Source of the DNA: a virus
Lineage: Duplodnaviria > Heunggongvirae > Uroviricota > Caudoviricetes
DNA length: 6,287 nucleotides
Virus record (IMG/VR): IMGVR_UViG_2778261567_000018
Direction: 5' to 3' (one strand)
Shown: positions 3,001-6,000 of the stretch, piece after piece
Layout: every line of letters begins with the position of its first letter
Numbering within the stretch: position 1 is the stretch's first letter
Position numbers: made by a program

Positions 3001-6000
3001 TACGTAGCAGGTCACCTATAATGTTGTGCTGCACTGGCTGCACTGGCTGCACTGGCTGCACTGGCTGCACTGGGGCGATATTTGGTTTTTTGTCCACTTC
3101 CCTTGCAACTGCCTGCCAGATGCCATTTTTTACAGTTACTACCCCCTGGTTTTTTAACTTCCATAGAGTGTCAATAACGTCATTCAAATCAATATTGAGA
3201 CCTTTAGAAATACTTTCGGCTGATGCTTTTCCTAATTTGTTCAATTCTGTGAGCACTGCGTTCATTTTTTTCTCCTGATATTTTAATGTCGGTGGGGCTG
3301 TTATACGGTTAGTGAGGTGTCAGCTTCTTCTACCAGCTTTTCCAGTTCATCCAGCTTTCGGGAAAGAATTTCACCAAACAGATGAAGTTCTGCATCTGCT
3401 GTAATCGGGATTGGAACAAATCGTATTCCACTTCTGGCAAGTTGATTTGCGATTTCCAGACACTGCCTTAATTCAACTGGTGATGCCTTTGTCAACGTCG
3501 TTTTTTCGCTCATTGGTTTTCTCCAGAAATTTAACAATACCCGGAACCATCTCAATGGATGGTGTGCCGCATTGGTTACCCCATACATCAAATCCATGCG
3601 AGGTGTGGCGGGCGAACAGTTCTATCCGGGGAACATCGCCAAGAAGTTGCACAAGTTTTTCTCGAGCCATATCCGGCTTGCGGGAGTGATCAAGGCGTGG
3701 TGCAGTGAATGACTGGATTATTCCGGCGTTAATGCGTTCGGGCAGATTTCCTTTCACTGCAAAAAGGCAGTCTTCGCTGTTAGCGCGAGTGGTGCTACCC
3801 ATACCCATGACCAGCTTGTCGGTCTGTCTTTTCCCGCATTTGTTCCAGGTTAATCCTTTCATCGTCACCAGACGAAAGCCCCACGCTTCTACAACCTTCA
3901 ATGCTTCAAGTGGTTGTGTAGGCACCCACCACATAGCCAACAGGCAATTCTCGGCTGCCAGTTCCCATACCGGGAGGCGGCAGATATCCAGAAGACTCAT
4001 GACCGGATATTTAAAACTTGCACCGCGTTGACCATCGGTTGCTTTGTCGCGGAATGTCCAGGGGGGATCTGCGTAAATGAGGGTGTATTTTTTCGTCATA
4101 GCGCGTTTTCAAACTCATCAATGTAAAGTCCTGCTTTAATCAGTCGGCGACGGCGTTCGGCCTTTTGCACGTATTCCTCGCGACAGTTTTTTGCTGCGTG
4201 TTCACGGCTTCTGCGACTGAATGGAGGAACGGCATTGCGTGAGCGAGGTGTGTCACGACGAGGATTTGATTCGAGGGAGAAAAAGCGATCAACGATTCCG
4301 GTGTCTGTGGTGAATGGTTCTGAAGCCTTTATTTTCACAACCTTACTGCCCTTTGTCAGGCCGCGAGCTACCTTGTTGAACTCGCAAAGTGAAACACCAA
4401 ATTTCTCTGCTATTTCACTGCCAGTAACAGGACGACCACGAGACTGAATCATCCAAGTGACGCGTTCTTTTAACCCACGGAAGGCACCGGGCCTTCCAGA
4501 ACGCCTGTAGAAAGCGATCTGTTTCAAATTTTTGTCTCCAGATATGAAAACCCCGACGGGATGTCGGGGATGGTAGGGGAAGTTACAGGCTTAACGAGAA
4601 GCCTTTTCGGGAATTTCGATCTGACAATCTTGAAATATCCTGTAGCGTGCGGCGCATTTCTTCCGTCAGATGCTTGAAGGCGTTAAATTCAGCGACAGCT
4701 GCGTCAACGTTATAGCCTTTGCTGTGTAGCTCGTTGAGGATGCGCATAGTTGGGCTTGGCATGTCGAAGAGCACAGAAACGTCCAGGTTAAGAGTTTTTC
4801 GATCAACATAGCTCATCATGGAGTAGGGGTGGTGCTCTGAAAACCACGATAGAGGGTAGTTGATGTTCATTGGTGCAGGTAAAAGGCTCTGGCGAAGTTT
4901 CTTTTCGCACTCGATGAAGTATCGGCGGATCTGGCGGCCTTTTTCGTTACGCTCAACCATCGCCAGTTCTTTGGCTGTGTCGAGAGTTAGGTGGTAGTCC
5001 TTGCTACGGCGATCACCTCCTCGCCCTTTGGTTTGCCCATTTTGGCAAATCAAAATATAGTCCTGGCTTTCAACGAATCCATATTCAGCAATGCGTTCTT
5101 TAACCCAGTGCGCGAACATTCTGCCCACACCAAGAAAAGAGTGTAGATCACGAGCGTTAACTAGAAGAATTGTTTCGTTGTCGATAGTGCCGTTGAATAC
5201 GGGGATGAGTTGACTGGTCATGATGACCTCCTTTGAAGTTTTAGTTAGCAATCACCAGTTAGTGGCTGGTGATCGGGTGTCAACTAGAGCCTTCAAAGAT
5301 GCTCCGGGCATATTCCCCTTGCGGGTATTGTATTACGCCTCTCCACCCGACCTTTGTACGGATGTGACTATGCCAAATTGCAGGCATAAAAAAGCCGCAA
5401 AGCTATCGGGTGCGGATGACCGCTTTGAAGTTCTAGTGCGGTCAGTATGCGATAGCTCTGGCGGATTTGTCAAATCATGTAGGCCTTATCTTGCTGTAAG
5501 CCGCGCCATTCGGGCTTTTCCCCAGATTTGGGGGAAACTATCTGCGAAGTATTCACCTTTGACGGCAAGTTGCAGGTTAGCCACGGTTAACCTCCTGCGG
5601 CGGTTCTGGTAGCGGCATCCAGTGTGTTACCTGCTCAACACCATTGCCCGGCTTAATCGTTGCTTCTCCTCGCCGAAAGGTGCTTCCGGTATAGCGTGCG
5701 GAGCATATTAGCGGCTCAACCAGATCACTATCGAAATTCACCGAAATAAGTACGTTCTGATTCTTTTTCGGCATTCGCTCACTACAGCTTATCCAACTAT
5801 CCGGAGTTACCGGAGAGTTACTAGCCTCATAAGCGGATTTCATCCAGTGCGTAAGCGTTTCGATGCTTACACATCCGCAATCAACGTCTATTTTTTCTTT
5901 TTGTTCTGACAACCATTCCTGGAATGACAGCTTGGCAGTCTGGCTTGCTGGATCAATTCGTGGCAGGCCGATATATAGTGGTACATTTCCCGGCTCCATC

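Follow-up and report, generated by a model that had tools for sequence, protein, structure and literature searches.

A PA8-type two-subunit MT-A70 methyltransferase in the left arm of a Stx2-type prophage at wrbA

The 6,287-nucleotide stretch of viral DNA in IMG/VR record IMGVR_UViG_2778261567_000018 (the window) is the left arm of a lambdoid prophage of the Shiga toxin 2 (Stx2) type at wrbA, and every gene in it lies on the minus strand. Two of these genes, which share four nucleotides, encode an MT-A70 N6-adenine methyltransferase and a small basic protein, PNB-2; as judged by sequence identity, this gene pair is the two-subunit methyltransferase of the Stx2a phage PA8, which is already known and was published in 2023 (Gong, Chakraborty and Koudelka, NAR 2023, PMC10810198). 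The features of the pair and of the gene that overlaps it are as follows.

3301-3513, minus strand: DUF1382, 70 amino acids, acidic (Pfam DUF1382, PF07131, and phrog_292)
3473-4099, minus strand: MT-A70 N6-adenine methyltransferase, catalytic subunit, M.EcoPA8orf6770P / M.ECPA8_3172P equivalent (Pfam MT-A70)
4096-4099, minus strand: ATGA stop/start overlap of PNB-2 and the methyltransferase, tcat on the plus strand (read in the sequence)
4096-4527, minus strand: PNB-2, PA8 gp6 equivalent, 143 amino acids, non-catalytic partner subunit (identity to KP682374 gp6)
4525-4539, minus strand: PNB-2 ribosome-binding sequence GGAG (4536-4539) and TTG start (4525-4527) (read in the sequence)
4551-4569, minus strand: intrinsic-terminator-like hairpin (consensus scan, RNA fold)

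The gene pair and its counterpart in phage PA8

The methyltransferase open reading frame (ORF) encodes 208 amino acids and begins MTKKYTLIYADPPWTF. Residues 5-176 align with positions 1-172 of the 172-position Pfam MT-A70 profile (PF05063) at 81 bits against a cut-off of 23.9, and the catalytic DPPW occupies residues 11-14 within IYADPPWTF (residues 8-16); this motif is kept in most aligned homologues, with DPAW or EPPW in a few. The enzyme also matches the PADLOC Type II methyltransferase model over its full length, with 285 bits. Searches with Pfam, PHROGs and PADLOC recognised neither an endonuclease nor a defence gene in the other ORFs of the window, so the gene stands without an adjacent cognate endonuclease gene, as the original prediction described. 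NCBIfam returned zero matches for all four proteins searched.

PNB-2 contains 21 arginines and 11 lysines in 143 residues (pI 10.75). Its TTG start is preceded by GGAG with an 8-nucleotide spacer, and this start is supported by the conservation of the N-terminal 25 residues in homologues of ~54% identity. The protein belongs to phrog_1680 over its full length, and profile searches with Pfam gave a weak HTH_11 match at residues 25-46 (E 0.0033). An AlphaFold2 model built with 17 homologues (mean pLDDT 70) predicts a winged helix spanning residues 19-85 and, beyond a linker that is disordered (92-102), a long helix near the C-terminus (105-131), in agreement with the helix-turn-helix-like segment noted earlier. 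A Foldseek search of this model against the PDB returned just weak, generic winged-helix matches (TFE-alpha, MarR/ZitR, ArsR; all E >0.01), which do not place PNB-2 in any particular DNA-binding or RNA-binding family.

Between PNB-2 and the AntA-like gene upstream lies a terminator-like hairpin, CCCCGAC-ATCCC-GTCGGGG followed by a T run, with an RNA folding energy of -16 kcal/mol and a z-score of -2.3. The terminator printed in the PA8 paper is identical to window positions 4540-4580, and in PA8 it blocked co-expression from gp7 (PMC10810198). A convincing sigma-70 promoter was not found between the terminator and PNB-2, and the gp6-gp5 promoter mentioned by the PA8 authors could not be located.

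Alignment with PA8 (KP682374) shows that gp6 (PNB-2) is identical to the window protein at 143 of 143 residues and that gp5, the catalytic subunit, is identical at 207 of 208 (E50D); at the DNA level 1262 of 1280 positions agree. Both subunits are adjacent in the published order with the same ATGA overlap, between the same upstream terminator and a downstream DUF1382. The differences lie around the pair: the AntA-like gene of the window is another allele than gp7 (PNB-1), with roughly half of the positions identical when the two are crudely aligned end to end, the C-terminus of DUF1382 and the repeat number of DUF1627 differ, and the window copy adjoins integrase and wrbA, whereas the PA8 record starts with attL and a mobile-element protein. 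The C-terminal part of the AntA-like gene alone is ~72% identical in many Stx phages, which points to another mosaic joint.

The activity of the PA8 enzyme has been studied directly. An IS629 insertion in gp5 (phage PA2) reduced spontaneous induction and the killing of amoebae, and the defect was complemented by wild-type gp5, but not by a DPPW-to-APPA mutant (PMC10810198). Loss of either gene leads to less spontaneous prophage induction and less killing of amoebae, and a preprint reports that induction declines in a graded manner across the PNB-2 single and double deletions and that the deletion phages transcribe the operon genes further downstream at an unchanged level (10.1101/2023.09.20.558713). 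Purified gp5 alone had negligible activity on RNA and on DNA, including dam- DNA, while His-tagged PNB-2 pulled down the methyltransferase and could be cross-linked to it 1:1; the complex consumed S-adenosylmethionine (SAM) with RNA at more than 13 times the rate seen with DNA, favoured 16S over 23S rRNA and 30S subunits most, and was nearly inactive on RNA from lysogens already expressing the enzyme (PMC10810198). Nanopore signal was altered around 16S positions 832, 1098/1100, 1132 and 1190 (10.1101/2023.09.20.558713). The proposal that the basic upstream protein is a partner of the methyltransferase is thus borne out by co-expression, co-purification, a 1:1 cross-link and a partner-dependent substrate preference, all published for proteins that are identical to those of the window but for one residue. 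The identity and phenotype of the pair are already in the literature, and the present analysis adds nothing new there.

The 1227-bp stretch spanning the pair and DUF1382 matches 187 phage records, nearly all from Stx-converting phages. Of 5426 complete E. coli genomes, 303 match all or part of it and 132 carry at least 80% of the stretch, the O104:H4 outbreak lineage being among the latter. Stx-type prophages at wrbA in genomes of Shiga toxin-producing E. coli and O104:H4 match the entire window at 99% identity or more, and PNB-2, the methyltransferase and DUF1382 are real genes, annotated in RefSeq E. coli as well as in phage records. The pair modulates spontaneous induction of the Stx2 prophage, and hence toxin output.

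Genes behind PNB-2 homologues

PNB-2 homologues are few, with 65 clusters against more than 1255 for the methyltransferase, and occur in prophages of Escherichia, Enterobacter, Klebsiella, Raoultella, Citrobacter and related genera. The nearest diverged pair found (locus L266, an E. coli prophage), also at wrbA, encodes proteins 91% (PNB-2) and 87.5% (methyltransferase) identical to those of the window and retains the same terminator and TTG start. At greater distance, the downstream gene was recorded at 75 diverged PNB-2 loci with 47-60% identity to the window protein:

34 of 75 loci: 218-residue MT-A70, directly ATGA-coupled, 44% identical to the window enzyme
3 of 75 loci: MT-A70 reached via a small ORF
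12 of 75 loci: T1-type Dam (PF05869)
7 of 75 loci: queuine-tRNA-ribosyltransferase-like protein (phrog_887)
3 of 75 loci: DndB
2 of 75 loci: N6_N4 methylase
2 of 75 loci: other DNA methylase phrogs
1 of 75 loci: PAPS reductase
2 of 75 loci: MT-A70 interrupted by an HNH-AP2 endonuclease
9 of 75 loci: DksA-like or uncharacterised ORFs, or no clear downstream gene

Single-linkage clustering at 90% identity or more divides these PNB-2 proteins into two main clusters, one of which (34 loci) is always followed by MT-A70, while the other (33 loci) is followed by 12 gene classes. Among PNB-2 pairs that are 95-98% identical, the downstream class differs in 49%. As near-identical PNB-2 proteins precede different classes, the position behind them is best described as a swap slot for nucleic-acid-modification genes headed by PNB-2; as far as we could find, this result appears to be new.

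The ATGA junction of PNB-2 and methyltransferase is present in 25 Stx-type and 34 diverged loci, and diverged loci also show ATGA overlaps that link PNB-2 to an ORF of 50-55 amino acids and this ORF to the next gene. ATGA is therefore an ordinary junction in such operons, and coupling alone tells little about partnership; the argument from tight coupling to joint action, made in the original prediction, is not supported.

Several further observations concern the slot and its boundaries. Two alternative ORFs of 50-55 amino acids (MTHAHDD... or MKAWSLEEL...) often precede the slot genes, joined by ATGA (L003-L022, L048-L102). In L013 (4560-4580), L017, L018, L020 and L021, for example, unrelated cassette genes and a small ORF share an ...EAA* end; the shared junction, AGGAGGCnGCATGA, comprises a ribosome-binding sequence and a stop/start overlap and looks like a conserved boundary for module exchange. 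In L085 and L099 (~4429-5080) an HNH-AP2 endonuclease gene is inserted in the 218-residue MT-A70 gene after ~35 codons, and its ORF ends with the methyltransferase's own C-terminal residues (VELIPGCAIDVVKTEAA), a disruption resembling those of homing endonucleases.

Several database proteins (P0048-P0059) begin as a PNB-2 homologue for 55-68 residues and then run into an unrelated C-terminus, which comes from DUF551, a DksA-like zinc finger, the end of MT-A70 or a small ORF; they look like recurrent deletions starting in a ~13-residue stretch after EFNRV. The PNB-2/MT-A70 chimeras among such proteins (for example P0050) appear to be deletion products and were rejected as true fusions. A 'Rosetta-stone' fusion of the two proteins had been sought on account of the length of the phrog_359 profile (329 positions, of which the window enzyme covers only 118-324) and was not found; the long MT-A70 proteins result from read-through of an upstream PerC-like ORF or from C-terminal extensions. 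The PA8 authors' speculation that the C-terminal tail of the methyltransferase is specific to PNB-2-linked enzymes was likewise ruled out, the xVxLxPG tail being conserved family-wide with or without PNB-2 and just the last ~15 residues varying.

RNA or DNA as the substrate

Direct experiments on identical proteins outweigh inference from gene neighbourhood, and for this reason we place an rRNA substrate above a DNA substrate. With a probability of roughly 0.5, the region 3473-4527 encodes a PA8-type two-subunit methyltransferase that prefers 16S rRNA, as indicated by the SAM-consumption assays published for near-identical proteins. PNB-2 and the catalytic subunit would then be translated from one transcript via the ATGA overlap, the winged helix of PNB-2 may supply nucleic-acid binding and substrate choice, and its C-terminal helix is a candidate contact with the enzyme; methylation of 16S rRNA may alter the behaviour of the ribosome and so lead to more phage and more Shiga toxin. 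Pairing of the two proteins has independent comparative support: the second PNB-2 clade (~54% identity) is ATGA-coupled to another MT-A70 clade at 34 loci, and within the Stx/wrbA lineage the pair is kept and does co-diverge (L266).

A number of observations count against a dedicated rRNA enzyme. The rRNA assignment comes from a SAM-consumption assay, and its authors state that the modified base was not identified (PMC10810198). None of 160 viral-contig loci with an MT-A70 gene 62-84% identical to the window enzyme has PNB-2 within 3 kb, which suggests that this enzyme clade normally works without it; the genes upstream encode a 102-residue PerC-like protein, several small ORFs, DndB and, once, a DUF1382 homologue. 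The window enzyme is up to 84% identical to these PNB-2-less enzymes, as against 44% to the other PNB-2-linked clade, a relationship that is more consistent with repeated cassette capture than with co-divergence; overall, the pairing looks like the product of such capture. The 12 classes headed by one PNB-2 cluster are mostly DNA-modification genes. Among solved structures, sequence search finds the DNA N6-methyladenine (6mA) methylase MTA1 as the best match (E ~1e-11 to 1e-12), ahead of METTL3 (E 1e-4).

These same observations form much of the case for the leading alternative, in which the enzyme is a phage orphan DNA N6-adenine methyltransferase (Dam-like, GATC) in a hypervariable DNA-modification slot (anti-restriction or epigenetic) of enterobacterial lambdoid prophages, PNB-2, as the conserved gene heading the slot, encodes a DNA-binding regulator or accessory protein in place of an rRNA-specificity subunit, and the rRNA preference in vitro is a side activity. 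We regard this as quite possible, with the odds somewhat against it. In its favour are the DNA-modification genes behind the 75 diverged PNB-2 homologues, with MT-A70 at 37 loci, the different cassettes headed by near-identical PNB-2 proteins, and the 160 of 160 loci where close MT-A70 relatives stand without PNB-2. Some Stx phages, too, have the methyltransferase without PNB-2: in Stx2 phage 86 (L263, 3297-3527) the full gene lies behind an ORF of 76 amino acids that shares only its last ten residues, LYIDEFENAL, with PNB-2, which shows that recombination took place within the 3' end of the gene lying upstream. The full-length PADLOC match and the likeness to MTA1 fit a DNA enzyme as well, and M.EcoGV is reported to methylate GATC in vivo when overproduced alone (PMC10810198, PMC6602927). 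However, overproduction is the one setting in which this methylation appeared, and the enzyme may act off target there; which ORF is M.EcoGV (Fang et al. 2012) rests on secondary papers; gene neighbourhood is indirect evidence; on dam- DNA, no significant activity of the purified catalytic subunit was measured, the holoenzyme prefers RNA as described above, and PNB-2 physically co-purifies with the enzyme. As a separate observation, recombination breakpoints lie inside genes both in phage 86 and in an O157 Stx2a phage (L264, described below).

A broader form of this alternative takes PNB-2-family winged-helix proteins as markers of the entrance to a hypervariable slot for nucleic-acid modification in these prophages, with the Stx MT-A70 as one filling, DNA as the main natural substrate (for anti-restriction or epigenetic purposes) and PNB-2 as a regulator or accessory protein. 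We consider it slightly less probable than the leading alternative; if true, the enzyme could no longer be classed, as published, as a methyltransferase dedicated to 16S rRNA without revision. The anti-restriction self-methylation suggested in the original prediction is unproven, the published assays favouring 16S rRNA over DNA.

It is very improbable that the locus is what remains of a restriction-modification system whose helix-turn-helix protein acts as a C-protein-like transcriptional controller of the methyltransferase. The gene does lie directly upstream of the methyltransferase gene, and PGAP names PNB-2 a 'regulator' in some records; but no endonuclease gene is found in the window or was called among the examined downstream genes of PNB-2 loci, PNB-2 is a 143-residue winged-helix protein with weak and generic structural matches, the 55 nucleotides upstream of it are filled by the terminator and leave no room for an operator, and a physical complex of PNB-2 and methyltransferase has been demonstrated (PMC10810198).

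Two patterns bear on the substrate question: PNB-2 homologues stand before interchangeable DNA-modification genes, and close relatives of the enzyme occur without PNB-2. If the target is DNA, the enzyme would be one more orphan methylase of the ordinary phage kind, and the claim for rRNA would need revisiting. If the target is 16S rRNA, the phage would encode an unusual writer of rRNA marks, with the architecture of a minimal METTL3- or MTA1-type complex.

DUF1382, the neighbouring genes and known systems

The third gene, DUF1382, has its own GGAG-ATG start and encodes a protein of pI 4.84 that scores 99 bits against the Pfam cut-off of 27; its first 41 nucleotides in the direction of transcription (3473-3513) overlap the 3' end of the methyltransferase gene. 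The elements on which the original prediction drew (IYADPPW, the ATGA overlap, the 41-nucleotide overlap, the acidic 70-residue ORF and the arginine-rich protein) are therefore all present, and profile searches of the two flanking proteins place them in the families given above. Co-inheritance is another matter. Relatives of DUF1382 were found in 374 phage records, among them lambda (derivatives), P1, 933W and phages of Erwinia and Pseudomonas, where they adjoin RecT, DUF1317 or ASCH genes with no methyltransferase beside them. In O157 Stx2a phages such as LC616035 DUF1382 is intact beside a methyltransferase remnant of 109 C-terminal residues, and Stx1a phages keep only a remnant of DUF1382. 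The diverged pair of L266 has no DUF1382, and its methyltransferase gene overlaps the start of DUF1627 instead, by 17 nucleotides and at the same CTGGAGAAAAC ribosome-binding sequence; it follows that the methyltransferase ORF reads through the ribosome-binding sequence and start of whichever gene comes next. At the diverged PNB-2 loci DUF1382 is absent or 0.4-3 kb distant.

DUF1382 is thus an unrelated lambdoid early gene, a neighbour outside the methyltransferase unit. That PNB-2, the methyltransferase and DUF1382 form one three-component functional unit, as first proposed from their tight packing through the ATGA and 41-nucleotide overlaps, is hardly credible: 98 of the 187 matching records from phages, and 132 E. 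coli genomes, do have all three side by side, but DUF1382 persists without the methyltransferase, the pair persists without DUF1382, the methyltransferase persists without PNB-2, and read-through into the next start explains the longer overlap. As an observation on the remnant, L264 (LC616035, 2244-2573) has the C-terminal 109 codons of the methyltransferase joined to an unrelated ORF of 222 amino acids.

The remaining genes of the window are:

1-579, minus strand: wrbA (ORF)
576-1910, minus strand: tyrosine integrase (ORF)
1939-2238, minus strand: excisionase, DUF1233 (ORF)
2269-2520, minus strand: DUF4222 (ORF)
2508-2888, minus strand: ORF of 126 amino acids
2885-3265, minus strand: DUF1627 (ORF)
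4583-5251, minus strand: AntA-type antirepressor-like gene
5577-6200, minus strand: DUF551 (ORF)

The stop of the integrase gene overlaps the start of the wrbA ORF (ATGA, 576-579), and the prophage junction seemingly gives wrbA a new start and N-terminus; RefSeq annotates the 579-nucleotide form as wrbA. The native N-terminus presumably differs from that of the window's product. In DUF1627, a (PVQ)n stretch is encoded by a perfect 9-nucleotide tandem repeat, GCTGCACTG, present in 5.1 copies at 3028-3073, and variation of the copy number among related phages gives DUF1627 proteins of 122, 125, 126, 128 and 132 amino acids. An Rfam match to sRNA-Xcc1 (RF02221) at 5263-5352 on the minus strand covers the full-length model with 65.4 bits against a gathering score of 53 and sits in an otherwise ORF-free gap that borders the AntA-like gene on its upstream side. 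At 5473-5444 the sequence TTGACA-18-CATACT resembles a promoter.

Besides PA8, the close known systems include M.EcoGV of O104:H4, an enzyme that is said to be highly similar to that of PA8 and to be carried on a Stx phage (Fang et al. 2012, as told in PMC10810198 and PMC6602927). The wrbA prophage of O104:H4 encodes an MT-A70 protein identical to the window enzyme at 206 of 208 residues and a PNB-2 identical at 143 of 143; the reported difference is the GATC methylation in DNA upon overproduction without PNB-2, in an enzyme whose ORF is identified through secondary papers. Two other candidate identities for the window enzyme were rejected: M.EcoGIX is plasmid-borne (pESBL), and M.EcoGII is a beta-class DPPY enzyme of 349 amino acids. 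The T1-type Dam (PF05869) and N6_N4 beta-class orphan DNA methyltransferases take the same place behind PNB-2 homologues in other prophages, but belong to unrelated folds or families and are separated from PNB-2 by an ORF of 50-55 amino acids.

The PA8 authors cite METTL3-METTL14 as the nearest structural homologue (PMC10810198). It shares with the phage enzyme the MT-A70 fold, a DPPW-type motif and partner-dependent activity, but its partner is an MT-A70 paralogue rather than a winged-helix protein, and its sequence match is weaker than that of MTA1. In the Tetrahymena MTA1 complex (MTA1-MTA9-p1-p2), MTA1 is the catalytic subunit of a DNA 6mA methyltransferase that likewise depends on separate helix-turn-helix partners. 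This complex differs in that its substrate is DNA and in that it needs MTA9, a non-catalytic MT-A70 paralogue; its partners are homeobox-like and bind via an N-terminal helix that the 208-residue phage enzyme does not have. The likeness of the phage pair to the MTA1 complex is one of working principle, not of membership.

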